DNA from: Escherichia coli
GTDB taxonomy: Bacteria; Pseudomonadota; Gammaproteobacteria; Enterobacterales; Enterobacteriaceae
NCBI RefSeq assembly: GCF_011045215.1
Contig: NZ_CP049201.1
Reading direction: 5' to 3' (one strand)
Length of the DNA: 64,000 nucleotides
Below, in pieces: positions 38,339 through 56,537 of this stretch. Position 1 is the first letter of the stretch; every line of letters begins with the position of its first letter. The notes under the pieces are model-generated. The model saw only the letters and a list, made by a program, of their open reading frames with translations, was not told the DNA's origin and made no database searches. The position numbers were made by a program, and so were the translations under genes.

Positions 38339-38340
38339 GA

Positions 38341-39714: not shown

Positions 39715-39717
39715 AAC

Positions 39718-40299: not shown

Positions 40300-41206
40300 C
40301 GGTTGCCTCCACCTTGTTCAGTGTGACTGAGCGACACCATGGAGCCTGTCCCATCGCCGGAACAATATCACTGGCCGGCGATTTCAGTGCCACCGTAATC
40401 ACCCCCGTCTGATGCAGGGCTCCGTCCATACCGGAGCAGGACGCCACAGAACCAATCCGGTGAACACTGTCAGTGTATGTCTGCAGCGCCTGACGGGCAT
40501 TTTTCATCACCAGTTCACCATCCAGCCCGTAGGGAATATGAATATCTGCAACCACATCGTAGAGAATAATTTCTGCCGCACGGACACTGACAAAATCCGT
40601 CAGAGGTCGAATTTCATCATCATTGACTGACGCTGCCACCTTATCCAGCAGGGGTTGCGATGCCGTACCGTTTCCGGTTCGCGATAACACATAAAGAAAA
40701 ACACGCCCTTCCTGTGAATGCGTTTCCGGCCCGTAGGCTTTCACATCCAGCACATCAGGATCAGCACTCTGTGCAAAATAATGGTAAGCATTTTTCGCAC
40801 CGGCTGTACTGAGTCGCGCCCACGACAACTGAATACGCTCACGAAAGGCATCATCCCCTTCATACACCGCCGGTGTGGGCGGGATAGTGCTGTCATCTGC
40901 CGGAGTAATCACCAGACGTTGCACCTGAAAATTCGCACCAATCTGATCCAGATCGTTCCTGCGGGCACTGGCAAGCAGTACAGCCCGGACTGCATCATTG
41001 ACCTGCTGGCGCATCAGCGCCACCCGAAAAGCAAGCGCCTCCGCCCATTTATACGCCGGATCTGATTCCACCAGGGCCGAAAACAACGTGTCCAGTTCCT
41101 GATATTTCGCCACTATCTGAGTGACCAGCACAGCGGTGTCCGGCACCTCCACCGCATCCGGTACAGGTATCGCGGACAAATCAATAATGGCCTGAGACGT
41201 TGTCAA
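40292..41206 (-). CDS. Baseplate assembly protein J (P2 gpJ-like)
   Basis: 304-aa ORF; ...ITPADDSTIPPTPAV... identical stretch to recalled P2 J. Confidence 0.8.
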   Translation of the reverse strand: MTTSQAIIDLSAIPVPDAVEVPDTAVLVTQIVAKYQELDTLFSALVESDPAYKWAEALAFRVALMRQQVNDAVRAVLLASARRNDLDQIGANFQVQRLVITPADDSTIPPTPAVYEGDDAFRERIQLSWARLSTAGAKNAYHYFAQSADPDVLDVKAYGPETHSQEGRVFLYVLSRTGNGTASQPLLDKVAASVNDDEIRPLTDFVSVRAAEIILYDVVADIHIPYGLDGELVMKNARQALQTYTDSVHRIGSVASCSGMDGALHQTGVITVALKSPASDIVPAMGQAPWCRSVTLNKVEATDE

Positions 41207-41537
41207 TTCTGATTTCCTCCAGACGAATTGTTTCCTGTGTTTCGTTATTCACGCCCAAAAGCGTCAACATGACATTTCCCTCACCGCCGAAGCTCACCTC
41301 CACACGGCGGATCGTCAGTCTCGGTTCCCAGCGTTCAAGAGCGGTAACCGTCTCACGGACAATCCTCACCCGTGTGAAATCATCCTGCGGGTTATCAAGC
41401 AGACTGAACAACCTGCTGCCGTATTCCCTGAGAAGTACCCGGCTGCCGACTGGTGTTGACAAAATATCGGTGACGGACTGACGCAGATGTTCGTTACCGT
41501 GCAGATATCTGCCGGTGGCGGAATCAATACCAATCAT
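41181..41537 (-). CDS. Baseplate protein W (P2 gpW / gp25-like)
   Basis: ORF track 41181..41627; start taken at MIGIDSATGRYL (ATG 41537); SVTDILSTPVGSRV resembles recalled P2 W. Confidence 0.75.
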   Translation of the reverse strand: MIGIDSATGRYLHGNEHLRQSVTDILSTPVGSRVLLREYGSRLFSLLDNPQDDFTRVRIVRETVTALERWEPRLTIRRVEVSFGGEGNVMLTLLGVNNETQETIRLEEIRIDNVSGHY

Positions 41538-41571
41538 GAAATTTTTCCGAAAAAAAACGCCGGTGCGGCGT

Positions 41572-42195
41572 TCACATTTCCTGGTTAGGTTTACGGGTGG
41601 TTCCCCCGCTGTCGCCAGGGTGATCATGAGTATTATAAATTTCGCGAATTTTACTCATGCTGCCGGTTTTATCGGTGATCTCCTGTGAGGCACCGATATT
41701 GCCCAGAACCTGCGTATCGGCATTAATCTTCGTTTCTCCCTGCACAGTCAGGGTATCCGTGATTTCCACCGGACCGTCCAGCGTTCCCCTGCCGGTGATT
41801 TTATAGCTGCCGCTTTCAGCCAGCGTGATGGACAGGGCATTGGCTTTACGGTCGTAACGGATTTCCGTTCCGGTATCAAACAAAATAACATGCTCGTGTT
41901 CACTGCCCGCCGGTACAGGAATGGCGTCAATATTCGCCCCCGGATACACACGACCGTTACGCAGATCGCCCGCCTCCGATATCACCGTGACCGCATCTCC
42001 TGGTGCCGGGTAATTACTGACCTGCATGTAACGCCCGGACTGCATCTGAATCCAGGGCAACGGCGGCGAAAGCACATCTCCGATATCCACCCGAACCATC
42101 ACCGGGTTACCCGGGATCACCTCTTCCACCACGCCGCGACGGATCATGTCCGCCACCCTGCGGCGTAACTCTGCCACTTCATCCGCCAGACTCAT
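41572..42195 (-). CDS. Baseplate spike protein V (P2 gpV-like)
   Basis: ORF track 41572..42354; start taken at MSLADEVAELRRRV (ATG 42195); C-terminus HDHPGDSGGTT as in P2 V. Confidence 0.8.
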   Translation of the reverse strand: MSLADEVAELRRRVADMIRRGVVEEVIPGNPVMVRVDIGDVLSPPLPWIQMQSGRYMQVSNYPAPGDAVTVISEAGDLRNGRVYPGANIDAIPVPAGSEHEHVILFDTGTEIRYDRKANALSITLAESGSYKITGRGTLDGPVEITDTLTVQGETKINADTQVLGNIGASQEITDKTGSMSKIREIYNTHDHPGDSGGTTRKPNQEM

Positions 42196-42339
42196 CGCCG
42201 GTGCCCTCCGCTTTCCAGATAAGACGATAATCCTGCACATGCTTTTTACCGGTTTCCGGTACTTTACCCAGCCAGACTTCCTGTAACGGCACACCTGCCG
42301 GAGCCGCAAACGGATCTTCGCCGACCGGAATGTCCTGTT
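42179..42339 (-). pseudogene. 3' fragment of a tail-completion gene (P2 gpS-like position), separated from its 5' part by the inserted element
   Basis: Open frame ...FSFEQDIPVGEDPFAAPAGVPLQEVWLGKVPETGKKHVQDYRLIWKAEGTGDESGG-stop with no upstream start (in-frame stop at 42398-42400); ATGA overlap with gene V. Confidence 0.55.
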
Positions 42340-42348
42340 CAAAAGAGA
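42340..42348. repeat. Left copy of 9-bp direct repeat CAAAAGAGA (putative att core)
   Basis: Identical 9-mer at 53493-53501; both copies sit in the same reading frame of the split gene. Confidence 0.5.
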
Positions 42349-42760
42349 AAGCAAACAAACAAGATAATAAGTTGAATTTAAAGGAATAAAAAAGGCATCA
42401 TTTTTGCTTTTGGTACAAATTCTAGTCCGTATAAACGCGGAAAAATCCGCTAAATTAAGATAAAAAAGATGCTTAGATAGTTACTATGTTTAGCTTCATG
42501 GCTACGGGGAGTAAGTTTGCTCTTTGCTTAATCTCGGTTATGGAAATCCCCATATCGGCATCATGCCCACCAGCGTGACGCATTTTTTTTAATTTCGCGG
42601 GTATAAAAATTTGACGAGGCGGGCGGTCCCATAAGCAATGGGGTGTAGGGATTCCGATCCCCCTGGGGGGGGTATTAAACACCCACCCTATTTAAATACC
42701 GTCTTTTTTGTCACTGTGTGTCACTGGTTGTCACTCTCCGTCACGGTATGCCACCATAAG

Positions 42761-43075
42761 TTAACGTCGTAACCGCTCCGGCTTCTTCCAGTGGTAAGTA
42801 ATTTTTTCTTTCTCCTGGTACATCTGCACGCGGCGACGGTATGACAACATCTCCAGAACTCTGGTGCGTATATTGCGCATATCCACGCCGTTAAGCTCAA
42901 TACCGTCACGGCGCATCACCTCAGCCACCACACGCGCGTAATTTTCGGCTATCACGCTGTCCGGCTGCGTGGCCTCCTGTTTGCCTGCTGGTGGTCTGAT
43001 TCCGGCAGCACGGCGAATCATTTTGAGCATTTCGGCTTCGGTCATTGTCATGGCCTCCGTGGTGATGGAAAACAA
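42761..43075 (-). CDS. Hypothetical protein downstream of element terS
   Basis: 104-aa ORF, no recognised motif; start uncertain (Met at 43075, 43051 or 43045). Confidence 0.4.
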   Translation of the reverse strand: MFSITTEAMTMTEAEMLKMIRRAAGIRPPAGKQEATQPDSVIAENYARVVAEVMRRDGIELNGVDMRNIRTRVLEMLSYRRRVQMYQEKEKITYHWKKPERLRR

Positions 43076-43310
43076 TGCCGTAATTGTGGCGGGTCCTTCC
43101 TGGAAAATGAAACACCGGGGGTGGCCATACGCGCAATTCTTAACTGTTTATGAAAATTTTTCGGGAAAAGTCAGATCCGTTCTTCTTCTCTGTAACTCAT
43201 TGTTTAATGGTAAAATCATCAAAAAAAGAAAGGATCTGGCAGTGGTCATTCTGGGCCCAAAATGACGTTATCAGATCCTTTCTCAGTTTTGTTCAATAAT
43301 TGCGCGGTTG

Positions 43311-43895
43311 TCACTCAGCTCTCTGTTGCCGTAACTTCTCCGGCACGTTTCCGGTTGTTTCCATCAGATAATCTTCCAGAATGCGGGGCAGGTTATCGGC
43401 AGTTTTAGCGCACGCATTACAGGCGCGTGCTGTTTCCCTCCTCAGGCCATCGATCATTGCCGGAGTCATCGCGGGAAACTGCCTTTGCATCGTAAGGGGC
43501 AAGCTATTCATGATGGTTGAAATCTGTTGCGCCAGTTTAGACAGTGCATACATACAAAAGCCGGTATCTATAACCTCTCCTGTCTCCCTGGCGTTCTTCA
43601 GTTCCTGCCCGTCAGCCTGTGCTTTAGTGAGACGGTATCGTTCGTACTCTGTTGTGCCTGGCTGTAAATCTGATTCACCAACGGCACGTAAATCATCAAG
43701 CTCACTGCGGAGTTTTTCTTTTTCGATCTCCTTCTCCCTCTGTACATACCATTCGATCACCTGTGAAGAGTCGAAAGTCACCTCCATACCTTTTCCGCCA
43801 CCAGATACATGGGGGAGCCCTTGCATCTGCCAACGTTCAATTGTGCGCGGATCAACACCGAAAATCTCTGCCAGTCTCTTTTTGTTAACATTCAT
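43311..43895 (-). CDS. Terminase small subunit, lambda Nu1-like (element copy)
   Basis: N-terminus MNVNKKRLAEIFGVDPRTIERWQMQGLPHVSGGGKGMEV resembles recalled lambda Nu1 winged HTH; C-terminal half similar to the prophage TerS at 62051..62560. Confidence 0.8.
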   Translation of the reverse strand: MNVNKKRLAEIFGVDPRTIERWQMQGLPHVSGGGKGMEVTFDSSQVIEWYVQREKEIEKEKLRSELDDLRAVGESDLQPGTTEYERYRLTKAQADGQELKNARETGEVIDTGFCMYALSKLAQQISTIMNSLPLTMQRQFPAMTPAMIDGLRRETARACNACAKTADNLPRILEDYLMETTGNVPEKLRQQRAE

Positions 43896-44039
43896 TTATC
43901 AAATCCTCATCAAAAACCACCTCCGACATGAAACGCCTGAAAAACGGGATTTTCCGGCGTTATGGTGTCGTATGTTTATTATAGTTAATTTAAATAAAAA
44001 CATAATGTTACATGCAAGAAGTACCGACATGCTTTTTCC

Positions 44040-44115
44040 CTGAAAAATTTTCATAAATAGTGAAAATCTGCGCGTCTGCCGCCCCGCGGTGTTTCTGATT
44101 CTGGAAAGGACCCGT
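44040..44115. other. Lambda-like cos site of the element
   Basis: GAAAAATTTTCATAAATAG ... GCGCGTCTGCCGCCCCGCGG ... GGAAAGGACCCG; reverse complement resembles the lambda cos junction (CGCTATTTATGAAAATTTTCC, GGGCGGCGACCT, GGGTCCTTTCC); about 185 bp upstream of terS. Confidence 0.6.
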
Positions 44116-44194
44116 GAAAATTGGGGCGATCACCACCGTTCCGGATACAAAAAAAATCGCGAGACCTTGCCAGCCTCGCGAACGTTCATTTCAG

Positions 44195-44620
44195 TTACTT
44201 AACAGACAGCAACAGCTTTTCATCTTCGGTCAGTCCGGCGTTGCCATCACCGGCTGCTGGCCCAACACATTTCGGGCTGTGCTTTTCCATGTACGCTTCA
44301 AACAGAAAAGCCGTTTTCTTTTCCTGCATCATTGCCTGGGCATCCACGGCAGCCAGTAACGTTTGTGCATAGGTTACTGTCATTACTTCAGAACCACACT
44401 CAATCAGCTTACTGGTGAACTCAGGGTATTTTGATGCCAGCGGTAACGCCTTGATACCCTCTATGCGCTGTTTATCACTCTCAGCCTTTGCAGTAAGCAC
44501 CGTTCGGGCTTCTGTCAGTGATGCGCCATTATTTGCGAGATTTTCCGCAAGCGTCGGGTATTTCTGCGCCTCAGGCAGTGCCATGATCAATGCTCTGGTT
44601 GAATTTGCTTTCTCAGTCAT
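44195..44620 (-). CDS. Hypothetical head-module protein (possible scaffold)
   Basis: 141-aa ORF between decoration-like gene and cos; no recognised motif. Confidence 0.45.
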   Translation of the reverse strand: MTEKANSTRALIMALPEAQKYPTLAENLANNGASLTEARTVLTAKAESDKQRIEGIKALPLASKYPEFTSKLIECGSEVMTVTYAQTLLAAVDAQAMMQEKKTAFLFEAYMEKHSPKCVGPAAGDGNAGLTEDEKLLLSVK

Positions 44621-44634
44621 AAATCACCACAAAA

Positions 44635-44964
44635 TTATTGCCCTAAAGGCTGCACGGAAATACCGGAACCAACAAAAGACGACACTTTTTTCTCGAACGT
44701 GTCCGCTGTATCAGGCCAGTTAATTTCATCGATATTAAAAACCCCGCACTTATAAACCTGTGCGCGGTTTTTTGTGGCCGTGTTAATGTCCGATATGGTC
44801 AGATACACCGCCTTACCGGGTGTACCGTCCCACTCAACCATCAGGCCCGCGCCGTTCTGCATCAGCGGAGTTCTCGCTTTAATTTCTCCGGCACTGGCAA
44901 AACAGGCCAGCGTGCTGACCAGTTCCTGCGTGCCGGAAAGGAATTGCGTGTAAGGTGTTGGCAT
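44635..44964 (-). CDS. Head decoration protein homologue (lambda gpD-like, element copy)
   Basis: RTPLM..VEWDGTPGKAV...YKCGVF..INWPD...FVGSGISV parallels the gpD pattern TPLM..VAWDG...YKSGTF...WP..AF.GTAIS. Confidence 0.65.
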   Translation of the reverse strand: MPTPYTQFLSGTQELVSTLACFASAGEIKARTPLMQNGAGLMVEWDGTPGKAVYLTISDINTATKNRAQVYKCGVFNIDEINWPDTADTFEKKVSSFVGSGISVQPLGQ

Positions 44965-44974
44965 ACGATCCCCT

Positions 44975-46030
44975 TTATTTCACTTCGACGGTAACAAAGC
45001 GACCAATATCCACGGGTACTGGCTGCGGGGCGCTGTGCGTCTGCACGTATTCAATCGCCGGATCGCCCGGTACGATATAATTTTTCGGGTAGTACATCCC
45101 CTCAGAAAATCCCTCGCGTGCCGCGTCCTGATCCATGATGGCACCATAAGCAACAAGGCCTTTATTTTCGGTATTGCCGAAAACCATCATGTTTTGTTTC
45201 AGGAAATATTGCTGCTGCCCGTTTTCGTCGTCATAACGACCGGAATAAACCACGATCGCCACATCACCGAGATACCCCTTGAAGCTGACAACGCCGCCCA
45301 AATCTTTTAGCGCAAGTTCAAGTGACGAGTTTGAACCGCGACGCGTGTCCATTAGTTCGCGGAATCGACGGAACGAGCGCAAAATACGCCAGGCTTCGCC
45401 ACCCATGACGATAATATTTACCGTACCTTCGGAAAAATCAGCGTAAGCCTCAATGTCGCTTATCGGATCAAACGTTTCGGCATCCTGTTTTGACCATTCT
45501 TTCCCGCCAGCCTGCGTAATATGATTGGTTTCGGGTAATCCCCAGTCAATTTCATAACGCTCAATGCCTTCGCCCTCAATAACGTTACGGCCTGTTGTGA
45601 TGGCATTGACCGCCAGCCATTCAACACGCGCTTTGATGGCAGCAAGCTGTTTTTTCTGGCTGTCGTGAACCATTTTTACGCGGCGTAGTGCCGGGGAAGA
45701 CTGACCATTGCCGATCTGTTCTCCAGGCATGCGCATGATTGTTTTGGTGGGATCAATAACGTGTTTGGGCTTCATATAACCCGGCGTGAACGTGTTCGTT
45801 GTGAAACCTTTGTCACGCATAACCTGGCTGCCTGACATTGGAGAACAAAACGGACTCATGACCACGTTTTCAATATCCAGCGTATCAAGTGCAATATCTC
45901 TGGTGCTGAAAGTAGCGACGTTCGGAAAGAACAACGTAGTAAAGAGTGGATTAAATTTAAATTCCGGCACATCTTCGCGCCCGATATTTTTCAGTAGCGT
46001 TGGTGTGCTTACCAGTTGCGGCGCTGTCAT
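44975..46030 (-). CDS. Major capsid protein homologue (lambda gpE-like, element copy)
   Basis: 351-aa ORF; TPGYMKPKH, NHITQAGGKEWSKQDAETFDP, KELMDTRRGSNSSLELALKDLGGVVSFKGY align with the prophage gpE at 55439..56467. Confidence 0.8.
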   Translation of the reverse strand: MTAPQLVSTPTLLKNIGREDVPEFKFNPLFTTLFFPNVATFSTRDIALDTLDIENVVMSPFCSPMSGSQVMRDKGFTTNTFTPGYMKPKHVIDPTKTIMRMPGEQIGNGQSSPALRRVKMVHDSQKKQLAAIKARVEWLAVNAITTGRNVIEGEGIERYEIDWGLPETNHITQAGGKEWSKQDAETFDPISDIEAYADFSEGTVNIIVMGGEAWRILRSFRRFRELMDTRRGSNSSLELALKDLGGVVSFKGYLGDVAIVVYSGRYDDENGQQQYFLKQNMMVFGNTENKGLVAYGAIMDQDAAREGFSEGMYYPKNYIVPGDPAIEYVQTHSAPQPVPVDIGRFVTVEVK

Positions 46031-46266
46031 TACTCACCCCCATGAGGCTGATTCATACCAAGCGCAGCGCGTAAATGGCTGCGTACCATCCAGCCGACTG
46101 ACGGCTTCACCAGGCACAACGGATCAAGGCCGATTTTTTTTCCTGCCTCTGCGTTCTCCTCAAAGCGCGCATTAAGTGCGGCGATAATATCGGGGCTGAT
46201 GTACACGGATACACCGCCCGGCTTCTGTGTTCCCATAAATGAGATTCCTCTTTGACTAAAAAACAA
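46030..46266 (-). CDS. Hypothetical protein upstream of capsid homologue
   Basis: 78-aa ORF, start uncertain; no recognised motif. Confidence 0.35.
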   Translation of the reverse strand: MFFSQRGISFMGTQKPGGVSVYISPDIIAALNARFEENAEAGKKIGLDPLCLVKPSVGWMVRSHLRAALGMNQPHGGE

Positions 46267-46457
46267 ACATAACGAAAAGTCATGTCATGATTTTAATTAT
46301 CGTTGCACTTTTTGCAATATAATTGACTATTGTTGCGAATAATGAAATCATTATGTCGTGGTTTTAATCCTTGTACCACAGAGTTGTTTAGCATTAATCA
46401 CGTTAGCGGCGTGAAATCCCCCGGAACCTCATCCCGGGGGATTTTTTTGCGCACAAA

Positions 46458-46482
46458 AAAGCCGGGAAAAATCCCGGCTTCT
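46458..46482 (-). terminator. Terminator after element ssb
   Basis: AGCCGGGA..TCCCGGCT hairpin followed by TTTTTTGTG on the minus strand, just after ssb stop. Confidence 0.5.
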
Positions 46483-46494
46483 GTCACTCGTTGC

Positions 46495-46917
46495 TTAAAA
46501 CGGTATTTCATCCCCGTACGGATCATCATTTCCCGCCTGTTGTTTTGCTCTGCTCAGTGCATCAGTAGCCTGCCCCTGTTGGCCTTTTTTGCCGCCCGGT
46601 CGCGCCGTTCTGGCACTGATTACACTGTCTGCGATAACCTGCCAGCTCTGCCGCGTTTCGCCGTTCTGGCCTGTCCACTGGCTTACCTGCATGTTACCCG
46701 CCACGCTCACCAGTTCGCCTTTGCGGTGTTTTGCCAGTGCGTCGGCCTGTCTGCCAAACGCCAGGACGGATAACCACATCGTCGCCGTTCCGTCATCTGC
46801 CTGGCTGCACGGCAGGGGAACCGCCATACTCGCCATCGCCATTTGTGTTCCCTTGCTGGTGGTCTTTAACTGCGGGTCAGCCACCAGCCGCCCGTAAGCT
46901 GCTATCTGTGCTGTCAT
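46495..46917 (-). CDS. Single-stranded DNA-binding protein (SSB-like) with acidic C-terminal tip
   Basis: 140-aa ORF; C-terminus ...NDDPYGDEIPF resembles the SSB tail ...DFDDDIPF. Confidence 0.7.
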   Translation of the reverse strand: MTAQIAAYGRLVADPQLKTTSKGTQMAMASMAVPLPCSQADDGTATMWLSVLAFGRQADALAKHRKGELVSVAGNMQVSQWTGQNGETRQSWQVIADSVISARTARPGGKKGQQGQATDALSRAKQQAGNDDPYGDEIPF

Positions 46918-47165
46918 GCTGTCTGCTCTCCGGTTTTAACGTTGATGGTTGTCACCTGTTCCGCTTCGGCAATCTCCCGCTCTGTCAGCGTGGCAAAGTT
47001 TGCCGCCGCTGTGGTCATGAATGCGCTTATCAGTTCGGGATGTGCTTTTGCGTATCCTTCTCCGGCATGGCGGTCTATTGTTCTGATTGCCACCTTTAAG
47101 GCGTGCTCTGTCATGTCTAACGCTTTATATTTTGGCGCTGTCTTATCTCTGGTTTTTTTGGTCAT
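46914..47165 (-). CDS. Hypothetical protein
   Basis: 83-aa ORF, ATGA overlap with ssb start. Confidence 0.45.
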   Translation of the reverse strand: MTKKTRDKTAPKYKALDMTEHALKVAIRTIDRHAGEGYAKAHPELISAFMTTAAANFATLTEREIAEAEQVTTINVKTGEQTA

Positions 47166-47370
47166 TTCTCACTATTCCCCACTTTTTCGCCTCACTTTTT
47201 AAGCTCCCAACATGATTTCCAACCTTGTTTTTTTGTGATTCTAATATGTTGTTTTTCAATGTGTTTTTTATTCCTCACTTTTGAGCCTATATACAGGTTG
47301 AAAAGTGAGGGGCGCGGTTGCTTTTTGTTCAGTTTCTGCTATCCCCTCACTTTTGTGCCTCACTTTTTAC
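47165..47370. repeat. Iteron array with AT-rich core (candidate replication origin of the element)
   Basis: CTCACTTTT at 47191, 47274, 47346, 47361 and inverted AAAAGTGAGG at 47301, flanking an AT-rich stretch (47225-47275), directly downstream of the helicase gene. Confidence 0.55.
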
Positions 47371-48782
47371 AGTGGGCGCACATCATCACCGTCAATAGTG
47401 ATAACGCCGTCTCTTTCCAGCTTGTACAGCCAGCGCCGAAAGTTTTTCATCTCATACCCCAGCTTTTTCATATCATCACGCAATAACGGGATAGTGCATT
47501 TATCGCCGCGCTGTGTGCGTGAACGGATACAGCCCCATAGCGCGGCGTGATTCTCCGTCTTGTTTCCGGCCTCCTCAATGCGCTCCAGTTCAACAGGTGG
47601 GCGCGGCTTATCCACTACCACCAGCGACGTGATTAACTCCTTGTCAGCGTCGATAAAAAGCTCCACCACGCGTAAATCGTATGCGGCCTCTTTCAGTTCC
47701 TCTGCGTCCTTCATTTTGGTGCAGGAGATAACCAGGGCTTCACTGTCTGCACCTTCCCGGCGAATACGGTATTCAGCGTCCAGAGATGCACGAAATGCAC
47801 TGGAACCACGCGCCCCCTTTGTTTCATCCTTGCCGGAATGGTGAACCACCAGTACCGTGGCCCCTGTGCGTCGTTTCAGTTCGTCACATCCACGGATAAA
47901 CGCCCCCATATCCCGCGCGTCATTTTCATCATTACCGCCAAAACACCGCGCCAGCGTATCCAGAATAATCATGCGTACCGGTTTACCCGTTTCCCTTTCA
48001 ACCTGGCGGGAAGCGATGACCATTTCATCAATATCAAACTGTGCTGCCGGAAAAATCGGGCGGTTTACCAGGTACAGATTTTTCACCCGTTCATCATTAA
48101 CGATTTCCCATGCTTTGATACGACGAGGGACACCAATGCCACCTTCACCGACGACATACATCACCGAACCATGCGCCACCCTGCGGCCTCCCCAGTGGCG
48201 ACCCGTGGCAACATGACACGCCCAGGAACACGCGAGGAATGATTTATAGGAACCGCTCGCGCCGTATGTGCTGCACAACGAATTAGCCGGAATCACGCCC
48301 TTAACGACATAATCAAGCTGTGTGTCGTACCCTGCAGATCCAATACTCATTGGTAGCGTGGTTTTTCGCTGGTCGTTTTTTTCTTCCTCCGGTATCTCTC
48401 CGGACCGTCTTTTCTGGCGCTCTCGTTCCAGATATTCGCGCCACCCCTCCCGCTTCTGGCTGTGCATTCCCTCAGGGTAATAATTCGCATCCCGTACACC
48501 TGCCGCTGCCAGCTTTTGCCCGATGGCATTAATATTTGACGGCTTGATGTGGCCTGCCTTGTACAGCCGGACACAATAGCGACCATCGTCGATAATTTTC
48601 AGGTCAGCCAGTTCGTCAAGATGGCTGTCTCCAAGCCATACAGGCGGAACATTGTCGCCAGCAAGTCGCCCGTCCTGCTCCTGCCATTGTTTCGCGTGCG
48701 CCCAGGCATCACTACCCGCAAAAATAATGACTTCGGTCATTTTGTCGTGCGGCTGTTTTTTTAAGTTCGGTGCCAGTTTCAT
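47367..48782 (-). CDS. Replication protein, RepA/DnaB-like P-loop helicase
   Basis: 471-aa ORF with Walker A GASGSYKS and RecA-like core; C-terminal winged-helix-like region. Confidence 0.7.
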   Translation of the reverse strand: MKLAPNLKKQPHDKMTEVIIFAGSDAWAHAKQWQEQDGRLAGDNVPPVWLGDSHLDELADLKIIDDGRYCVRLYKAGHIKPSNINAIGQKLAAAGVRDANYYPEGMHSQKREGWREYLERERQKRRSGEIPEEEKNDQRKTTLPMSIGSAGYDTQLDYVVKGVIPANSLCSTYGASGSYKSFLACSWACHVATGRHWGGRRVAHGSVMYVVGEGGIGVPRRIKAWEIVNDERVKNLYLVNRPIFPAAQFDIDEMVIASRQVERETGKPVRMIILDTLARCFGGNDENDARDMGAFIRGCDELKRRTGATVLVVHHSGKDETKGARGSSAFRASLDAEYRIRREGADSEALVISCTKMKDAEELKEAAYDLRVVELFIDADKELITSLVVVDKPRPPVELERIEEAGNKTENHAALWGCIRSRTQRGDKCTIPLLRDDMKKLGYEMKNFRRWLYKLERDGVITIDGDDVRPL

Positions 48783-49078
48783 TTTTTACCCCTGAATGCG
48801 TTAATCATGTTTTTCATTTTCTGAATGTTCGCCCGTGCCTTTGCGTTGCTGGTGGGCTGTTTGCATGGCGTGGCCTGTATCAGTGAAAAATCACGCCGGA
48901 ACTGATAAACAGGCATCACGCAGTCATAGCCGTACCCATCACGGCGGTAAGTAACGCACCGTCCCGCCACGCTTTTAATCGTTACCGTGCCGCCGTAGTT
49001 ATCCCGGAAAATATCGCCGGGGCGGATTTCAGGCCGAGCGGGGCCGCTGGCAGTAAAGCCAGAAATTTTCTGTTTCAT
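48779..49078 (-). CDS. Hypothetical protein
   Basis: 99-aa ORF, ATGA overlap with helicase start. Confidence 0.4.
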   Translation of the reverse strand: MKQKISGFTASGPARPEIRPGDIFRDNYGGTVTIKSVAGRCVTYRRDGYGYDCVMPVYQFRRDFSLIQATPCKQPTSNAKARANIQKMKNMINAFRGKK

Positions 49079-49286
49079 GGTTTTTATTCCTCTGCGCGGG
49101 TCTTGTTGTGTATTTCCATAACCGCGTTTAATTCATCAATAACCGGGGTTAACAGAGTGCTGAAAGCAGAAAATAAATCCCCCCCCCTGTTCGGCATGAA
49201 CTTCGGTTAATTTAATTAATACCGCTTTCATTTCCAGTGCCCGGTTTAATGCATTCTCAGAATGAATAAGAACATCGAAAGGGATT

Positions 49287-49520
49287 TTATCCATGGCTTA
49301 CATCCTCCGGGAATTTTCTTCTGTAACGCGCCTCTGCAACATATTCCGCATAGTCCGACGCAATATTGAGAATCTCCACACCCTCTGACCTGTAGCCACT
49401 GGTACTGATAAGAAAAAATGCGGCTTTCATCATGTCGGCAACGCATAACAACGCATCGCCTGTATGTTCCGGTGCGCCATCAAATTCCTGTTTCAGGGCA
49501 TTAAAACGATCATCACGCAT
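49287..49520 (-). CDS. Hypothetical protein (may be the 3' part of one gene frameshifted at a C9 tract)
   Basis: 77-aa ORF; begins inside poly-C/G tract 49523-49531. Confidence 0.3.
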   Translation of the reverse strand: MRDDRFNALKQEFDGAPEHTGDALLCVADMMKAAFFLISTSGYRSEGVEILNIASDYAEYVAEARYRRKFPEDVSHG

Positions 49521-49753
49521 AACCCCCCCCCATTTTCACAATCAGTAATCAGGATGGCTTTAGCCTCATTCAGTGCCATATCAGCACTAAATTGCATAAC
49601 AGCCAGTGAGTGAGGAACGAAATCCCCGGCATATTCTGTTTCGCTGGTGGCGTGCTTATGTGCCCTGTCCGCGATAACAGAAATATCAATCAGCGCGTGC
49701 ATCAGCGTTTTGATGGCTTCGGCGGCTGCGTCCTGACGGGTGTTATTGCACAT
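49493..49753 (-). CDS. Hypothetical protein (may be the 5' part of one gene frameshifted at a C9 tract)
   Basis: 86-aa ORF ending just after poly-C/G tract. Confidence 0.3.
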   Translation of the reverse strand: MCNNTRQDAAAEAIKTLMHALIDISVIADRAHKHATSETEYAGDFVPHSLAVMQFSADMALNEAKAILITDCENGGGLCVMIVLMP

Positions 49754-49949
49754 GGCGCACCTCCTGACGAATACGGGCGGCGAATACCATCACGCAGCCA
49801 TCAGGAGATTGCTGACGCGCTTCCTGTTCGTTGGTGGCCTCAATGGTAATCACGCGCGGTTGTGCCGTGCTCAGGGCGATAAAACGCCAGATGTATTTAT
49901 TCAGGTTGTGCGAGTCCCGCCCTTGCGGGTGTGTGGTATGATTTAACAT
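49743..49949 (-). CDS. Hypothetical small protein, divergent from the RHH gene
   Basis: Start taken at MLNHTTHPQ (ATG 49949, RBS GAGGTA); long upstream extension in ORF track rejected. Confidence 0.4.
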   Translation of the reverse strand: MLNHTTHPQGRDSHNLNKYIWRFIALSTAQPRVITIEATNEQEARQQSPDGCVMVFAARIRQEVRHVQ

Positions 49950-50043
49950 AGCTACCTCGATAATCTTGCTATCGTTGGTGGTTAGACGCCCTGCATGTGT
50001 ACCACCACTGCGGGGCGTTGCGTTTTTTGATGTGCACGTGTTA

Positions 50044-50088
50044 AGGTGTACACCTAACGAACCAAAACATAACGCCATAGGTGTACAC
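50044..50088. promoter_or_regulatory. Two palindromic operator-like sites GTGTACAC in a divergent promoter region
   Basis: AGGTGTACAC at 50044-50053 and 50079-50088, second abutting the RHH start codon. Confidence 0.5.
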
Positions 50089-50283
50089 ATGTCAACAGTT
50101 ATTAAGCGCGATAAAAAACAAAAAGGCACAGGAAAGGCCCCACCATTCCATATGCGTATAGTCCCTGAATTGAAGGAGCAGTTTGATAACGAAGCCAGTA
50201 ACGATGGAGTAAGTCTTGCCAACTGGCTTAAAGAGTTAGGGCGCAAAGAACTGCTACGGCGCGGAATTGAACCAAAGGGATAA
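50089..50283 (+). CDS. Ribbon-helix-helix (Arc/CopG-like) DNA-binding protein
   Basis: ORF track 49966..50283; start taken at MSTVIKRDKKQKG (ATG 50089); APPFHMRIVPELKEQFDNEASNDGVSLANWLKELGRK fits the Arc-type RHH pattern. Confidence 0.6.
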   Translation: MSTVIKRDKKQKGTGKAPPFHMRIVPELKEQFDNEASNDGVSLANWLKELGRKELLRRGIEPKG

Positions 50284-50340
50284 CTATCACTAATGTCGCA
50301 ACCAGAGGAGTTGCGACTCCGAAGATTACATAGGAAATTA

Positions 50341-50823
50341 ATGATTATGGGATTCGTCATTTTCATTGCGATCGTAATTTTATCCATTTACGTTCTTACC
50401 AAATTATTTATTTCAGAAAATTCACACGACAAAATTAGAGCCGAGGCATCCAGAAGAATTGCACAAGAAGAGGCCGAACGGGCTAAGTTGTATGAAGAGA
50501 GAAAGGAATCATCTGATAATCCTGTTAATAAACAAAAACGAATAACAACACACGAAGATCATTTTTATATGGATATTCATGGTGGTCACAAATATATATG
50601 TGTTGATGCTAAGTTAGTTTTTGAATATGCAAATTTAAAACACAACTATTTTCTTCACGCCTCTCACTATTTCCCTGAGTTAGAGTATGTTTATGGAAAA
50701 AACGAACATGGGAAAATAGTTAGAGTAGATTTGTACGATAAAAAAATTCAAGCTATTAACCCCGATACTGGCGAAAAAATACCTGGTGTGAGACGTTATC
50801 TACGACAGCACAAGATAAAATAG
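50341..50823 (+). CDS. AT-rich membrane-anchored protein of unknown function
   Basis: ORF track 50293..50823; start taken at MIMGFVIFIAIVILSIYVL (ATG 50341, RBS AGGAAA); single N-terminal TM helix; markedly lower GC than neighbours. Confidence 0.5.
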   Translation: MIMGFVIFIAIVILSIYVLTKLFISENSHDKIRAEASRRIAQEEAERAKLYEERKESSDNPVNKQKRITTHEDHFYMDIHGGHKYICVDAKLVFEYANLKHNYFLHASHYFPELEYVYGKNEHGKIVRVDLYDKKIQAINPDTGEKIPGVRRYLRQHKIK

Positions 50824-51238
50824 CCCACCGGAATTTTTTTCCGGTTACGCTTTGCCCACCAGCCGCAAATGTGGCATTGTTGGCTATGCTCATGCGTTGG
50901 GGATAACGCGCAATTAGTGTTGAAGGGCCACCGTAGCGGGTGGCCTTTGTTTTGCCTGTTATCCGGCAATTGTGGCGCTTCGCCACACGGTTGATATAAT
51001 CCTCCTGCACAGATTCATTTTTTGCGCAGCAGGTTAATTGTTCGCAAGGGCGCTCCGGCAACTGGGCGCTTTTTGTTTTTACCCACCAGCACAATAAAAA
51101 TCTTCATTTTCCATTTTTGCAAAATTTCATGCTTTCCGGACGACTGGCCATATGTCATTTTTTAGCAGAAGATTTTGCCTTGCTGGTGGGTAGCTTCCCG
51201 GTTAACACGATGTACCGTATAATCAGCACCGCACGCGG

Positions 51239-51820
51239 TTACTGAATACGCTCACCAAAGTAAAACTCAGGCTGATATTCACGTATCAGCCTTTTTTCTT
51301 CTTCCTCCAGCTCACGCTTTTTGCGCTTACATGCCTGTAGTTCCCTCCCCTTCTCGCTGGCACTTATCTGGTATTGCTCTTTGCGACGGGAAAAATCCTG
51401 TAATGCGCCCCACGGGATACCATAAGCCCCCGTTTTTCTGATACCCGGTATCACATTTCTGAATACCCAGTTACTGAAACGATGGGCGAACGTGCCAGGA
51501 GTAGCAGCTTTTCGACTTCTGGCAATCAGCTTGTAAAAACCAGATTCAGAAACGACGCTATGATTTGGATTTCCGCGAATACCGTAAGTTAAAGTTACGG
51601 TATTACTTTCATCATCATCCAGAGCTTGCAACGCCATGCGTGAATTAGTCAGTTCCAGCGCAGCGCAGACATCCTTTGCAACAAACCACGGATCGCCGTT
51701 CAGATACACCACGCGAACGTTCACACTATCAAAGCGCAGAACGACCAGATCACGAATATCACAGAATTTTTTCACTGGACGTGCGTCACCCTTGCCAGTC
51801 ACGGCAATATTTTTATTCAT
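51239..51820 (-). CDS. Bro-N domain protein (antirepressor-like)
   Basis: DIRDLVVLRFDSVNVRVVYLNGDPWFVAKDVCAALEL...GFYKLI..S....A..F..WV fits Bro-N. Confidence 0.7.
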   Translation of the reverse strand: MNKNIAVTGKGDARPVKKFCDIRDLVVLRFDSVNVRVVYLNGDPWFVAKDVCAALELTNSRMALQALDDDESNTVTLTYGIRGNPNHSVVSESGFYKLIARSRKAATPGTFAHRFSNWVFRNVIPGIRKTGAYGIPWGALQDFSRRKEQYQISASEKGRELQACKRKKRELEEEEKRLIREYQPEFYFGERIQ

Positions 51821-51870
51821 CGCTTTTTACCTCACATACAAAAAACCCCGCATTGCGCGGGGTATATCAA

Positions 51871-52080
51871 TCATTGACGATATTCATTAGCTTGTTTTCG
51901 TTGTCTTTCCAGCCACGATGCAACATCATCACGATGCCATGCGTTGCGTCGCCCAATCTTAAAGGGGCGTGGAAATTTATTTTTTTCATCATTCATGAAA
52001 GCGTAAAATGCACTCATTGCACCGTAGCGAAGCTCTGCCATCACGTCTTTGGTAAATAGAATATTGCCGTTAGTGCTCAT
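51871..52080 (-). CDS. AlpA-family regulator / excisionase-like protein
   Basis: 69-aa ORF immediately downstream of integrase, HTH-like core. Confidence 0.65.
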   Translation of the reverse strand: MSTNGNILFTKDVMAELRYGAMSAFYAFMNDEKNKFPRPFKIGRRNAWHRDDVASWLERQRKQANEYRQ

Positions 52081-52086
52081 ATTGCC

Positions 52087-53319
52087 TCACATATTCACTA
52101 CTTTTAGCCCCTGATGACCACCAGAACGACGGATAATTCCCTTTCTGGCATCATCAACAAAATCACCAATCCATTGCATCATGATCTTACGTTGCTCAAA
52201 ATATTTTGAGCGATTATAAATATCACGAATAGCATCGCCGCTTTTATGGGCTAATGCTGCCTCAATAACATCTGGGTTAAACCCTTCTTCGTTGAGTAAC
52301 GTACTCCACATAGCCCGGAATCCGTGGGCAGTTGCAATACCATAAAATTGTCCATCTTTGAAACACTTATGACGCAACACGCTTGATATAGCTTTCCCCG
52401 GATTCTTTGGAGAAAAAAATATATAGCTACCACATTTTATTTTATTCATTTCATTTAAAATATCCACGGCTTGCCGTGAAAGCGGAACTACGTGTTCACG
52501 TCCACACTTCATTCTTTCAGGGGGAATTGTCCAGATACAATTTTCTAAATCAATTTCCTCCCATTTTGCCTCCCTTGCTTCACATGGTCGTACCATAGTG
52601 AAAATCTGGAACAAAAGAGAGCATCTTATAGAGATATTACTTGTAGTATCCCACCAGTTCAAAAATTCTGATAACAGTTCAACTGGTAATGCCTTTAATG
52701 GGGTATGTTTTTTTGTTGCAAATGCATTTCTTATTGTTGATAGCGGGTTATTTTTAATTACTCCAGAGTTAACACAGTAATTCATTATTTCATTAATTTT
52801 TGAAATAATTTTATCCAATACAGAATTACGATCAGAAAATTGATTAAGCAATGGTATGACCACAGGCGCGGTCATATCATGTATGTACACATTTCCAAAT
52901 ACAGGGATTATATGTCTGTTCAATAACTCTTCTATTGTCTGTAAAGTCGACAGTCGCAAATCACCTTTTTTCTTAAAATTAAACCATTCAATTGCAATAG
53001 CACCAAACGTCTGTAAGTGCTTTCTTTTAGCCTCGAGTCGTTTTTCTGCCCGGTATGATAACGGATCTATATCCCGTGCCAACAATCTGCGCAGATTATC
53101 GCGTTCTTCTCTGGCTTCAACCAGCGTGAAATCGGGGTATCGCCCTATAGTGTATGTTTGCCGCTTCTTCGTAAAAGGTTGTACATAACGAAAACGCCAC
53201 GATTTACTACCGGCTTTTGACACATAAAGCAAAAGCCCAAACCCATCATATAGAGCGTAATCTTTCTCTCGTGGCCTGGCGCTTTTTACCTCTGATGCAG
53301 TAAGAGGCTTCACCGACAT
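52087..53319 (-). CDS. Tyrosine recombinase, P4-type integrase
   Basis: ORF track 52087..53418; start taken at MSVKPLTASEVKSARPREKDYALYDGFGLLLYVSKAGSKSWRFRY (ATG 53319); C-terminal catalytic region with HGFR and Y. Confidence 0.85.
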   Translation of the reverse strand: MSVKPLTASEVKSARPREKDYALYDGFGLLLYVSKAGSKSWRFRYVQPFTKKRQTYTIGRYPDFTLVEAREERDNLRRLLARDIDPLSYRAEKRLEAKRKHLQTFGAIAIEWFNFKKKGDLRLSTLQTIEELLNRHIIPVFGNVYIHDMTAPVVIPLLNQFSDRNSVLDKIISKINEIMNYCVNSGVIKNNPLSTIRNAFATKKHTPLKALPVELLSEFLNWWDTTSNISIRCSLLFQIFTMVRPCEAREAKWEEIDLENCIWTIPPERMKCGREHVVPLSRQAVDILNEMNKIKCGSYIFFSPKNPGKAISSVLRHKCFKDGQFYGIATAHGFRAMWSTLLNEEGFNPDVIEAALAHKSGDAIRDIYNRSKYFEQRKIMMQWIGDFVDDARKGIIRRSGGHQGLKVVNM

Positions 53320-53492
53320 ACAAGCACTCCAATACAAATTTTTTCTAGTCCATGCGCTGGTTCCTTTTGCCAGAATACTGGCGATAAAAAAGCGAAAAAC
53401 AAGGAACAATGCACACAATGAAAAAACCGCAACTTATTGAATAAGAAGAAAAACAAAAAGAAACGGTAACGAAAGATAATGATTGCATAGTC

Positions 53493-53501
53493 CAAAAGAG
53501 A
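53493..53501. repeat. Right copy of 9-bp direct repeat CAAAAGAGA (putative att core)
   Basis: Identical to 42340-42348; about 170 bp from the integrase start. Confidence 0.5.
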
Positions 53502-53898
53502 CACGGAAAACGATGTAGTCGTCCAGCAGTCGGTCGAAGGTATCCACCTCAGCATCAATAAAAACCGCCGGATCAACGTTATCCAGCCCGAACGTGGCTC
53601 CATCAATCCAGTCAGATAAATCCATTGCCAGACAGCGGGCAAATATCTGCGGTTTTGGCACGTTTTCCGTCTTTCCGGCCCGATCAGTCACCACAAACAG
53701 ATCGCATTTCAGCGTGACCCGTGTCTGCCCGTCGGCAAACTGAGCCTTGTCCCAGCCGGGTACATCCACAAACACGGCAGGCGTCACCAGTTGCGTCACT
53801 TTTTCCGGGTACTCATCGGCATCTTCCACCCAGGGAATTTGTTTCAGACTGTCAATCACTGCCTGATGCCAGGTTCCCATCATCAATGGTTCCATCAT
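53501..53898 (-). pseudogene. 5' fragment of the split tail-completion gene
   Basis: ORF 53434..53898 reads a coherent protein to ...DDYIVFRVSF then a hydrophobic nonsense tail (GLCNHYLSLPFLFVFLLIQ) encoded by element sequence; frame at the junction matches the fragment at 42179..42339. Confidence 0.55.
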
Positions 53899-54617
53899 TC
53901 CATCCCCTTAAATACCCGGAATTTCAGTTCATGCTCAAAATTTTTCAGGATCAGTGCTTCCGCATCAGGGAAAACAAAATCCTCTATACGGTTCAGCATG
54001 GCTTCATAAATATCAATTTCCGCTTCGCGCACCCTTCGTCGTCCGGATGCCTGCCGGACCAGTACCGTCTTACGTCGTGAAATGCGTCCGCGCCGGTTTT
54101 CAGACTCAAACTCATTAACAAAAGCCTCGTCACCTGACCAGGTGGTGACCGGTATTGCCTCCCCGGCGGGCTTAAAACGTATCTCCGGCGCTTTCCTGCG
54201 ACGGGAAGCCGGTGCAAAACGCCCCCGTTCATCACGCAGCTGATGGCGTTCACCGCGTCGCCCCCCACTGATGCGTCCGCGCAGATCACGCACTTTGATG
54301 GCGTTCAGGCCGAACCACACCTTTACCTCATCAAACTCATCGCCATTTCGACGAATGATAAAAGCATTCAGGACACGTTTTTTGATCATTTTCTGGCTGC
54401 GTGGCGCAACCTGTTTTTTAAACTCTGCCATGGCCTTCATCCGCAGTGCGGACGCGGCTCTTTTCAGCGCCACGCCCCAGGCTTTACGGATCTGGCTTTT
54501 TGAACCACCCAGTTTAGCGATAATTTTCAGCACATCATCCTCGTCAATATCGACGACGAGGTTTCGTGCCAGCCGTCGCTGCCGGACAGTGCTTCGTTCA
54601 TGCTCTCTGACTGTCAT
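53895..54617 (-). CDS. Putative head-tail joining / virion morphogenesis protein
   Basis: ORF track 53895..54677; start taken at MTVREHERSTVRQ (ATG 54617); between FII-like and tail-completion genes; family not recognised. Confidence 0.45.
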   Translation of the reverse strand: MTVREHERSTVRQRRLARNLVVDIDEDDVLKIIAKLGGSKSQIRKAWGVALKRAASALRMKAMAEFKKQVAPRSQKMIKKRVLNAFIIRRNGDEFDEVKVWFGLNAIKVRDLRGRISGGRRGERHQLRDERGRFAPASRRRKAPEIRFKPAGEAIPVTTWSGDEAFVNEFESENRRGRISRRKTVLVRQASGRRRVREAEIDIYEAMLNRIEDFVFPDAEALILKNFEHELKFRVFKGME

Positions 54618-55005
54618 AACGTTTACTCGGTCGGACAGGGGCGGCGGGTGTACTTCTTCCGGGTTCTCCCCGCGCAAGAGTAATGGTAATCACACCATGA
54701 CCCGCAGTGCCTGACTCATCCCAGCCAGGATCGACCACCTGGTAGGGTTCGCCGTGGATCATGACCCTGTCATATTTTTTCAGTCCGGCAACCCATGCGC
54801 TCCGGGTAAATAACACCGGTGCAGTATCACGAATTTCGCCGCTGCCAGTGTTCATCCCGGTGTTATCTGCCGGGGCATCAAAAACAGCACGGATTTTTCT
54901 TTCCGTGCCGCCCGGATATATGCTGATTTCCGTCCCCATCGTATCCAGGATGATGTCATCCGCATCACTCATGGCCTGATCGAACAGATTATCGGACATC
55001 ATCAC
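54598..55005 (-). CDS. Head-tail joining protein (lambda FII-like)
   Basis: 135-aa ORF; NLFDQAMSDADDIILDTMG resembles recalled lambda FII N-terminus; ATGA overlap with FI. Confidence 0.65.
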   Translation of the reverse strand: MMMSDNLFDQAMSDADDIILDTMGTEISIYPGGTERKIRAVFDAPADNTGMNTGSGEIRDTAPVLFTRSAWVAGLKKYDRVMIHGEPYQVVDPGWDESGTAGHGVITITLARGEPGRSTPAAPVRPSKRYDSQRA

Positions 55006-55388
55006 TCCCGGATTTTTTCTGCCAGACCATCCGCCAGCAACGCAGGAACTGTGGCTTCATTAACCAGCACAACACTGGAGGCCCGGGCGAACATCAACAT
55101 TTTGCCCGTCACCGCATCACGGGACGGCATATGTGCCGTTTTCAGCATGCGCACCCGAACGAGTCCCCGCTCAGAATACACCTCATTACGGGCATCCCCT
55201 CCGGATGCATCACGCTGTTCATCATGCACATCATCCTGTTCTGTCCCTTCCCCATCGAATCCGGCGGCCTCCTCTTCCCATTCCGCCAGGCGCTGTTCAA
55301 GATCGGCTTTTGAACCTGAAATATCTGCTTCACGCCCCAGAATCTCTGCCAGCTCCTGCAGGCGTTCAGTCATCTGCTCTTTTGTCAT
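55002..55388 (-). CDS. DNA packaging protein (lambda FI-like)
   Basis: ORF track 55002..55520; start taken at MTKEQMTERLQELAEILGREADISGSK (ATG 55386-55388); resembles recalled lambda FI. Confidence 0.65.
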   Translation of the reverse strand: MTKEQMTERLQELAEILGREADISGSKADLEQRLAEWEEEAAGFDGEGTEQDDVHDEQRDASGGDARNEVYSERGLVRVRMLKTAHMPSRDAVTGKMLMFARASSVVLVNEATVPALLADGLAEKIRE

Positions 55389-55438
55389 CACATTTCTCCC
55401 GTGCGATAAAGAAAAAGGCGGGAATATCCCGCCTGACC

Positions 55439-56467: not shown

Positions 56468-56537
56468 AATTGACTTTCCTTTAAAAACACAAACGAACCG
56501 CATCACGACCCGTTTTTTTCAGTTAATCACTTCACCA

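Follow-up and report, generated by a model that had tools for sequence, protein, structure and literature searches.

Helper-embedded phage-inducible chromosomal islands (HE-PICIs) were described by Tommasini, Mageeney & Williams (2023, NAR Genom Bioinform; PMC10111431) as satellites that reside in a late gene of their own helper prophage. In the founding member, Eco567.11capE of E. coli NRG857c (hereafter 11capE), treatment with mitomycin C was shown experimentally to make the composite excise and replicate, followed by excision of the satellite and restoration of the interrupted capsid gene (PMC10111431). Here we analyzed a stretch of 64,000 nucleotides of E. coli DNA (contig NZ_CP049201.1, assembly GCF_011045215.1; hereafter the window), in which an 11,153-bp integrase-bearing element splits a gene of a contractile-tailed prophage. 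We consider it highly probable that this element is a helper-embedded, PICI-type satellite placed by its own P4-type integrase at the 9-bp core TCTCTTTTG (codons V133-E136) of the prophage's tail-terminator gene.

Using the 11capE integrase at a cut-off of at least 400 bits, the same survey recovered 491 further HE-PICIs, all in one clade, which together occupy 14 sites in counterparts of the lambda genes A, B, C, E, H, J, L, T and V (PMC10111431). The clade shares a doubled attP motif, TGTATTGC; the HE-PICI motif tgTGTATTGCantgTGTATTGCa is doubled, with copies lying about 81 bp upstream of the attP centre and 132 bp downstream of it (PMC10111431). Passive replication with the helper and late read-through transcription were proposed as effects exerted in cis, and the authors expected further HE-PICIs to lie outside their survey (PMC10111431). 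The published picture is that of a single integrase clade, with helpers that are siphovirus-type lambdoid phages and with 14 sites. A preliminary description of the window had implied that a satellite inserted in one of its helper's late genes was novel in itself; this was overstated, as the central idea was published in 2023 (PMC10111431).

Insertion junctions and the interrupted gene

The 9-bp direct repeat CAAAAGAGA is found at 42340-42348 and 53493-53501 in identical codon phase, and its only third copy within the window is at 52612. In the orientation of the element, the copy at the integrase-side junction (53493..53501), which reads TCTCTTTTG on the coding strand, is attL, and the copy at the distal junction (42340..42348) is attR. 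Counting one copy of the repeat, the insert spans 42349-53501 inside a prophage gene of 188 codons. The 5' part of this gene (53493..53898, minus strand) encodes residues 1-135, and its open reading frame (ORF) runs on to 53434, reading ...DDYIVFRVSF and then 19 nonsense residues encoded by the element, GLCNHYLSLPFLFVFLLIQ, before a stop at 53434. The 3' part (42179..42348, minus strand) encodes residues 133-188 and the stop codon, has no gene-derived start codon of its own, and after the repeat reads EQDIPVG.... The preliminary description had recognized both the 9-mer in matching codon phase and the coherent frame that breaks off into nonsense and resumes in the distal fragment, and both are borne out. 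Removal in silico of 42349..53501, or equally of 42340..53492, yields a clean 188-residue ORF whose reconstructed junction contains TTCCGTGTCTCTTTTGAACAGGAC. The deletion proposed earlier, 42349..53492, does restore one reading frame but retains both repeats, giving ...VSFVSF... and 191 residues. The overlap of the distal fragment with baseplate gene V, earlier given as ATGA, is 17 nucleotides, with the start of V placed at 42195 by alignment with the annotated gene V of E. coli C5.

The joined flanks are 99.8% identical over 2000 bp to the uninterrupted site of E. coli C5. Other genomes had been suggested as the place to look for an intact copy of the gene, and the uninterrupted site is present in 76 of 5426 complete E. 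coli genomes. Because of this match and of these intact sites, the insertion is, as judged by alignment, exact and not a chance repeat. The reconstructed attP of the satellite reads ...GATTGCATAGTC-CAAAAGAGA-AAGCAAAC... and holds no replacement sequence for the target gene. Target-site duplication by a transposase was considered and rejected; no transposase is present, and a tyrosine integrase adjoins the junction.

The restored protein matches phrog_1072 over positions 3-173 of 174 (E 4e-51), a family annotated as of "unknown function", while a Pfam scan of the protein returned nothing even at E <= 10. Homologues of 170-190 residues encoded by single ORFs form 100 cluster representatives, and full-length uninterrupted homologues occur in the isolated phages Hafnia phage yong2 and Citrobacter phage Chris1, a Vibrio myovirus and Wolbachia WO. 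The expectation that the restored ORF would correspond to one full-length phage protein thus held. An AlphaFold model of the restored protein, built on 70 homologues (predicted local distance difference test score of 91.6), finds its best structural matches among tail terminators; the top match is the pyocin R2 collar protein (PA0615), and T4 gp15 is a more distant one. Sequence identity to the tail terminators compared (PA0615, the Mu terminator, lambda gpU and T5 p142) is only 12-19%. Terminators such as lambda gpU, T4 gp15 and that of Mu cap the tube or sheath and are needed for tail completion and head joining. The gene sits between the neck and head-completion genes and the tail genes, as expected for a tail terminator, and in the pyocin cluster the PA0615 gene presumably stands directly upstream of the V homologue, at the position that this gene and P2 S also have, which would bear out the synteny drawn on in the preliminary description. 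By the fold of the model, the split gene encodes a tail terminator, a role that is predicted.

The preliminary description had placed this gene at the position of P2 S as a tail-completion gene. The tail-completion type stands and is refined to tail terminator by the fold. Homology to P2 gpS by sequence was rejected, as there is no such family match and only the position and the terminator fold agree. In the model, junction residues 133-136 lie within a predicted beta-strand (128-140), and the 5' fragment, which lacks the last 53 residues, is unlikely to fold. No second copy of the terminator gene was found in the window, and the element carries no replacement copy.

The element, its probable helper and a proposed cycle

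The element is read on the minus strand with int first, co-oriented with the late operon of the surrounding prophage, and the coordinates that follow refer to the minus strand unless stated. The P4-type tyrosine integrase (410 residues, 52087..53319) carries Arm-DNA-bind_3, Phage_int_SAM_3, Phage_int_M and Phage_integrase domains, and its start is at 53319 (MSVKPL...) and not at the TTG at 53418. It is followed by an AlpA-like helix-turn-helix protein and putative excisionase (69 residues, 51871..52080), a Bro-N/anti-repressor-like protein (51239..51820; phrog_2593, E 1e-82), a divergent ORF with no family match that is the only sizeable one on the opposite strand (50293..50823, plus strand), a protein with a C-terminus like that of the Icd family of host cell-division inhibitors (49743..50387), and a phrog_2512 gene of unknown function (49287..49753). 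The replication module comprises a DUF4222-family protein (48779..49078), a RepA-family helicase or replicase of 471 residues (47367..48782; phrog_2850, E 7e-251), an intergenic putative origin with six iteron-like CCTCACTTTT repeats (47177..47367), and a phrog_1231 protein together with a single-stranded DNA-binding protein (SSB; 46495..47165). The late zone encodes a paralogue of the lambda gpE-type major capsid protein (44975..46030), a head-decoration paralogue (44635..44964; 36% identical to that of the helper), a Nu3-like scaffold paralogue (44195..44620; 36% identity with the C-terminal portion of the helper's S49 protease/scaffold) and a small terminase subunit (TerS) of the Nu1/phage-21 gp1 type (43311..43895), with a cos-like site upstream of TerS (44035..44127). 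Two small ORFs of unknown function, one matching phrog_1561 and the other without a match, lie at the distal end (42473..43075).

PHROG, NCBIfam and family scans of the element ORFs found no large terminase subunit (TerL), portal, protease, tail or lysis gene, and the NCBIfam scan found little beyond the Icd-like domain. No Rfam family lies inside the element. No tRNA genes were found in the window, which excludes a tRNA-type att site. Family scans thus bear out the satellite gene content that had been read from the ORFs at first sight, and the gene order is, by sequence, the organization of Gram-negative PICIs; we read the element as a PICI-type satellite.

The cos-like sites of the element share the lambda-type core ...ACGCGCA...CTATTTATGAAAATTTTTC with the helper cos region (62690..62800, minus strand), which contains the lambda-like CTATTTATGAAAATTTT, and the element and helper sites lie at the same distance from their TerS genes. 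A second cos-like copy, inverted, is found downstream of TerS (43077..43169, plus strand). The two copies (43077-43169 and 44035-44127) thereby flank TerS as an inverted pair of 93 nucleotides that are 75% complementary, each ~77-81% identical to the helper cos. The inverted pair is kept in related elements of strains SA53-3, TUM9812 and CFIAFB20180511; in the latter two, a 441-nucleotide ORF replaces TerS between the cos-like copies, with breakpoints at the repeats.

Positions 1-25000 of the window belong to the E. coli core chromosome and run from acnA through the trp operon, with ordinary chromosomal RNA elements found by Rfam (STnc180 small RNA at 7595-7797 and the trp operon leader at 20236-20329). 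The prophage extends from ~27 kb to the window end, with its late operon on the minus strand, and combines a lambda-type packaging and head module with a P2-type contractile tail. Upstream of the insertion (53898..62560, minus strand) its late genes are intact and encode TerS (Nu1-type), TerL (GpA-type), a gpW-like protein, portal, S49 protease/scaffold, decoration, capsid, FI, head closure and a Neck1/gpZ-like protein. Downstream (31203..42195, minus strand) the contractile-tail genes are likewise intact: V, W, J, I, fibre, fibre assembly, sheath, tube, E, tape measure, U, X, D and an extra fibre. Alignment to the copy in C5 is full length and free of stops for all late proteins from TerS to gpD, and only the target gene is in two pieces. 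The preliminary reading of a satellite inserted in a structural gene of the phage around it is supported by the gene content, the exact site and the intact, co-oriented late operon. Genome annotation can easily mistake a composite of this kind for one defective prophage that contains pseudogenes.

We infer that the element excises and depends on the helper, on the strength of its anatomy and the 11capE precedent. In a lysogen, the interruption would be costless because late genes are silent. Upon induction, helper late transcription from the truncated terminator gene would enter int and the alpA-like gene; motif scans of the 115-nucleotide gap between the stop of the gene fragment and the start of int found no terminator-like and no promoter-like site, and the first strong hairpin, which resembles a terminator (51845..51863), directly follows the alpA-like gene. 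The integrase and AlpA-like protein would then cut out a circle of 11,153 bp, which would repair the terminator gene. Since excision restores that gene, complete tails, which the satellite needs as well, would be made only after the satellite is freed. The circle would replicate from the iteron origin with RepA and SSB, and the phage-21-type TerS would act with helper TerL to cut at the satellite's own cos. The shell would be built from the capsid, decoration and scaffold paralogues together with the portal and protease of the helper, helper tails would complete the particle, and in a new lysogen the satellite would re-enter at the same late-gene site. In such an arrangement the parasite's excision switch sits inside a gene that both partners need, and virion completion would be gated in cis by the satellite.

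Several further features of the helper were observed. Its left end, between trpA and the tail-fibre genes, is a C4/isrK locus: 28972-29788 contains Rfam matches to c4-a1b1, isrK and C4 antisense RNA (the immunity RNA of P1/P7/P4 type), immediately followed by an anti-repressor gene (phrog_2379); at 27479-28579 there are two cargo ORFs without known function. The S49 protease/scaffold gene (56917-58392) is shorter than that of C5 by 138 bp (46 codons), in frame, and overlapping BLAST segments indicate a change in the copy number of an internal repeat. At 37799-39708, the fibre C-terminus and the fibre-assembly gene are 71% and 34% identical in amino acid sequence to those of the C5 helper; the region matches, inverted and at 96% nucleotide identity, the fibre genes of a neighboring C5 prophage, that is, a tail-fibre module exchange. 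In C5, Mu-type genes (repressor, Ner-like, Mu transposase and MuB-like ATPase; positions 33034-37054 of the C5 locus, L001) lie a few kb upstream of terS, where lysis and Q genes are expected, and a transposable prophage seems to have landed in or beside that helper. Searching a phage collection, we found no isolated phage with more than 80% nucleotide identity to the helper head region or to the element.

Relatives, possible retargeting and rival explanations

Integrase genes of at least 96% nucleotide identity occur in only 4 of the 5426 complete E. coli genomes. Two of these genomes, SA53-3 and CFIAFB20180511, are occupied at this exact site, at the same codons of the same gene. Their helpers diverge by up to ~13% in DNA (flanks at loci L002 and L004 are 87-93% identical to the window), their elements have diverged too, and SA53-3 has the variant core CGAAAGAGA at both junctions. 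Beyond complete genomes, the 59-residue ORF that marks the distal junction of an occupied site (matching residues 131-188) was found on at least 73 E. coli assembly contigs.

TUM9812 and AREA_492 carry an integrase that is 95% identical, and there the element interrupts terL in a prophage of the same type. When the attP sites of the terminator and terL types are reconstructed, the arms are identical and the central block differs at three positions, TCTCTTTTG versus TCACATCTG, all within the central 7 bp; each core matches its own target. Eighteen integrase residues are fixed differently between the two types, 12 of them within residues 144-231, a segment that we provisionally assign to the core-binding region by comparison with other tyrosine integrases. 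The two types form a matched pair for integrase retargeting, 95% identical, with identical attP arms and three core bases that differ between terL and tail terminator. The helper in the window has an intact terL that reads CCACGTGTGGAC at 61101-61118, two bases apart from the TUM9812-type core CCACATCTGGAC, and might serve the terL-seeking sister as a poor or secondary target.

Genomic contexts were inspected for 12 integrase lineages of 42%-99% identity from Escherichia, Salmonella, Klebsiella, Enterobacter, Buttiauxella, Lelliottia, Raoultella and Yersinia, with distant cases judged by adjacency and fragment sizes. All of the integrases are co-oriented with, and directly follow, truncated or terminal phage packaging or head genes, and downstream of them are alpA-like, Bro, DUF4222 and primase genes. 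At 89% identity, in Salmonella, the preceding gene is a truncated GpA ATPase fragment of 375 residues as called, on a contig that begins just upstream. Nu1 followed by a truncated GpA ATPase fragment is found in Enterobacter (71%; 329 residues) and Klebsiella (70%; 334 residues), and in Buttiauxella (65%) Nu1 is followed by ~1.1 kb without a called gene, with a junction sequence that matches the terL site. The integrases at 59%, from E. coli O157:H7 (Stx1a prophage) and a dog isolate, follow a terL fragment (~335 residues) in phages with a DUF1441-type TerS, and that of Lelliottia (57%) follows a 195-residue GpA fragment. More distant integrases lie after a Terminase_2 TerS (E. coli, 50%), in a head module with Phage_portal_3, Mu_F and Pa193_gp24 (E. 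coli and Raoultella, 50-51%; in Raoultella after a 153-residue capsid fragment), after a DUF6651 head-module gene (E. coli, 43%), and after or within a Phage_portal_2 gene (Yersinia, 42%).

In the four closest terL cases the junction falls at codons F-H-I-W, and this GpA-type terL site is the commonest and probably the ancestral one. A rough neighbor-joining tree, which is crude, nests the tail-terminator lineage within the terL-targeting lineages and places P4 Int between the window's integrase group and 11capE. The nested lineage, the 18 fixed substitutions and the three core substitutions in an otherwise identical attP make the move from terL to tail terminator look recent, a retargeting from one late gene to another within a single helper type. 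We think it somewhat more probable than otherwise that the window's integrase belongs to a P4-family clade that is phylogenetically separate and the second to have the helper-embedded habit. If this is true, late-gene tropism is not the property of one clade, and it either has two or more origins or extends much more widely than published. Literature searches limited to open-access papers and bioRxiv turned up no account of this clade, this site or the retargeting, and yielded only the Tommasini paper and works that cite it.

One relative has a setting of its own interest. In O157:H7 strain ECP19-198 (NZ_CP066759; locus L008, 5073-15491), a PICI with the 59%-identical integrase splits terL of a Stx1a-converting prophage, in the order Q, stx1AB, lysis genes, DUF1441 TerS, 5' part of terL, PICI, 3' part of terL and portal; its integrase cluster has 657 member sequences. 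Interruption of terL in such a prophage could affect production of the Shiga-toxin (Stx1) phage.

Three other explanations of the locus were weighed. The surrounding prophage might be only a landing pad, with the element mobilized by another lambdoid phage of phage-21-type terminase specificity and residence here providing co-inheritance or interference; we judge this unlikely. It draws on the packaging genes, as the TerS-cos segment of the element has ~73% nucleotide identity to phage 21 gp1/cos, nearer than to the surrounding prophage, with which TerS shares 38% amino acid identity and cos 81% identity over only 80 bp. It is for that reason uncertain whether this particular helper does the packaging. 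A divergent TerS is, however, what a satellite would use to redirect helper TerL to its own cos, and at matching positions the cos-like cores have the lambda-type motif in common. Identity between the capsid paralogue and its helper counterpart is 46%, and the TUM9812 and CFIAFB20180511 relatives have a different cassette in place of TerS, which would also fit mobilization by another phage. Against this, the element lacks TerL, portal, protease and tails, all of which the surrounding prophage supplies intact. Both known target sites of the subclade, tail terminator and terL, are in genes that the satellite itself would need, a choice that makes sense only under dependence on this prophage.

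We regard as quite improbable a dead-end insertion, in which a one-off integration at a secondary site inactivated the prophage, with no further excision and no regulatory role. Off-target integrations and many truncated helpers have been reported among HE-PICIs (PMC10111431), and the exact site is occupied in only the two complete genomes named above. One element gene is apparently frameshifted, as two adjacent ORFs at 49287-49753 match the N- and C-terminal halves of phrog_2512, a homologue of which is intact in TUM9812 (154 residues). A search for the free attP junction that allowed any base at the three variable core positions gave 0 matches in public viral contigs and 0 in metagenome contigs. 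A dead end accords poorly with occupation of the same site in helpers up to ~13% apart and on at least 73 assembly contigs, with gene halves and other late genes that are all intact, with joined flanks that match the empty site, and with an int, alpA-like gene and replicase that are all full length. Every integrase relative examined, moreover, lies in a phage late module, which points to tropism and not to accident.

That the insert is mosaic prophage DNA, such as a moron or second-prophage remnant acquired by illegitimate or homologous recombination, is very hard to credit: although element positions 278-8738 consist of modules that are 90-95% identical in nucleotide sequence to chromosomal islands with other integrases in more than 2000 E. 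coli genomes, reflecting rampant modular recombination, the alignment to the exact empty site essentially refutes it. Also against it are the exact 9-bp repeats, the integrase beside one junction, attP arms identical in a sister that differs at three core positions matching its own target, and a GC content of 46.8% against 52-53% in the flanks.

Some of these observations also weigh against our preferred reading of a helper-embedded satellite, namely the affinity of TerS and cos to phage 21, the apparent frameshift and the lack of attP matches in the contig collections. To these may be added that the AlpA assignment is weak (phrog_66, E 2e-5; Phage_AlpA, i-E 6e-4), that activation by read-through is drawn from orientation and simple motif scans, and that the early region and integrase of the helper lie beyond the window, from which its inducibility cannot be judged.

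Comparison with known systems

Among described systems, 11capE is the closest. Like the window element, it is a PICI of ~11 kb that interrupts a late gene in a lambdoid prophage, has the same orientation as that prophage and holds no replacement sequence in its attP. Both have the zone order int-alpA, Bro, replication and late, both encode their own lambda E-type capsid (57% identical) and decoration genes, and both have a short block of identity at the junctions. The window element has the four-zone organization of PICIs, at 11,153 bp falls within their range of ~10-16 kb, and has no lysis or tail genes; as in HE-PICIs, it disrupts a late gene of a prophage, and its int, alpA and replicase run in the same orientation as that gene. 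It differs in that 11capE has no TerS, whereas the window element encodes its own. The two integrases are 27% identical (92 bits), far under the 400-bit cut-off of the survey; the window integrase scores better against P4 Int (32%, 198 bits), and P4 Int against 11capE gives 69 bits. No copy of TGTATTGC with up to one mismatch was found near -81 or +132 of the window's attP, where a single TGTATTGG lies at +161. The tail-terminator site is not among the 14 published sites (site list and att identity strings in Supplementary File 1), nor is the GpA-type terL site on the published list, where both "A" sites are named for the Terminase_1 profile. String searches of the supplement with the core and its flanks and with the element ends gave no match, a weak result given that the alignment files wrap lines, and the site list is the stronger evidence. 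Membership in the published 11capE clade was rejected on integrase score, doubled attP motif and site list. The element is best filed as a new variant of helper-embedded PICI, with another integrase lineage, another target gene, a contractile-tail helper and its own TerS. To the published picture the window thus adds an unrelated integrase lineage, a contractile-tail helper and a new essential target gene.

Classical Gram-negative PICIs such as EcCICFT073, reportedly described by Fillol-Salom et al. in 2018 and 2019, share with the window element the int-alpA end, the Bro/Icd zone, the DUF4222-replicase-SSB order, capsid homologues and, as predicted for the window element, cos packaging by lambdoid helpers. 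They lie in chromosomal genes and interact with helpers only in trans, whereas the window element sits inside its helper. EcCICFT073 is said to redirect packaging with Rpp. It has no TerS (PMC10111431), and the window element encodes one.

According to Alqurainy et al. (2023, preprint 10.1101/2022.09.08.507074), capsid-forming PICIs (cf-PICIs) encode all proteins for their own capsids and packaging. The window element has in common with them its own capsid shell proteins and a predicted dependence on helper tails. The cf-PICI set includes TerL, portal, protease and connectors. Assignment to the cf-PICIs was rejected, as the element lacks TerL, portal and protease and has only capsid, decoration, scaffold-like and TerS genes.

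Satellite P4 shares a P4-family integrase with an arm-binding domain (32% identical) and, as predicted for the window element, cos packaging and dependence on the structural genes of a contractile-tail helper. The replicase of P4 is the alpha primase, while that of the window element is a RepA helicase, and no PHROG or NCBIfam match to the P4 core genes (psu, delta, sid, alpha primase and epsilon) was found among the element ORFs. P4 integrates in a tRNA-Leu gene and not in its helper.

A looser parallel is provided by elements of regulated gene integrity or active lysogeny such as skin in sigK of B. subtilis, phi10403S in comK of Listeria and SpyCI in mutL, where a gene is likewise interrupted and precise excision restores it at a defined stage. 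What is interrupted in the window is a gene of another virus, and excision would be timed to serve the satellite and not the cell, a point also made for HE-PICIs (PMC10111431).

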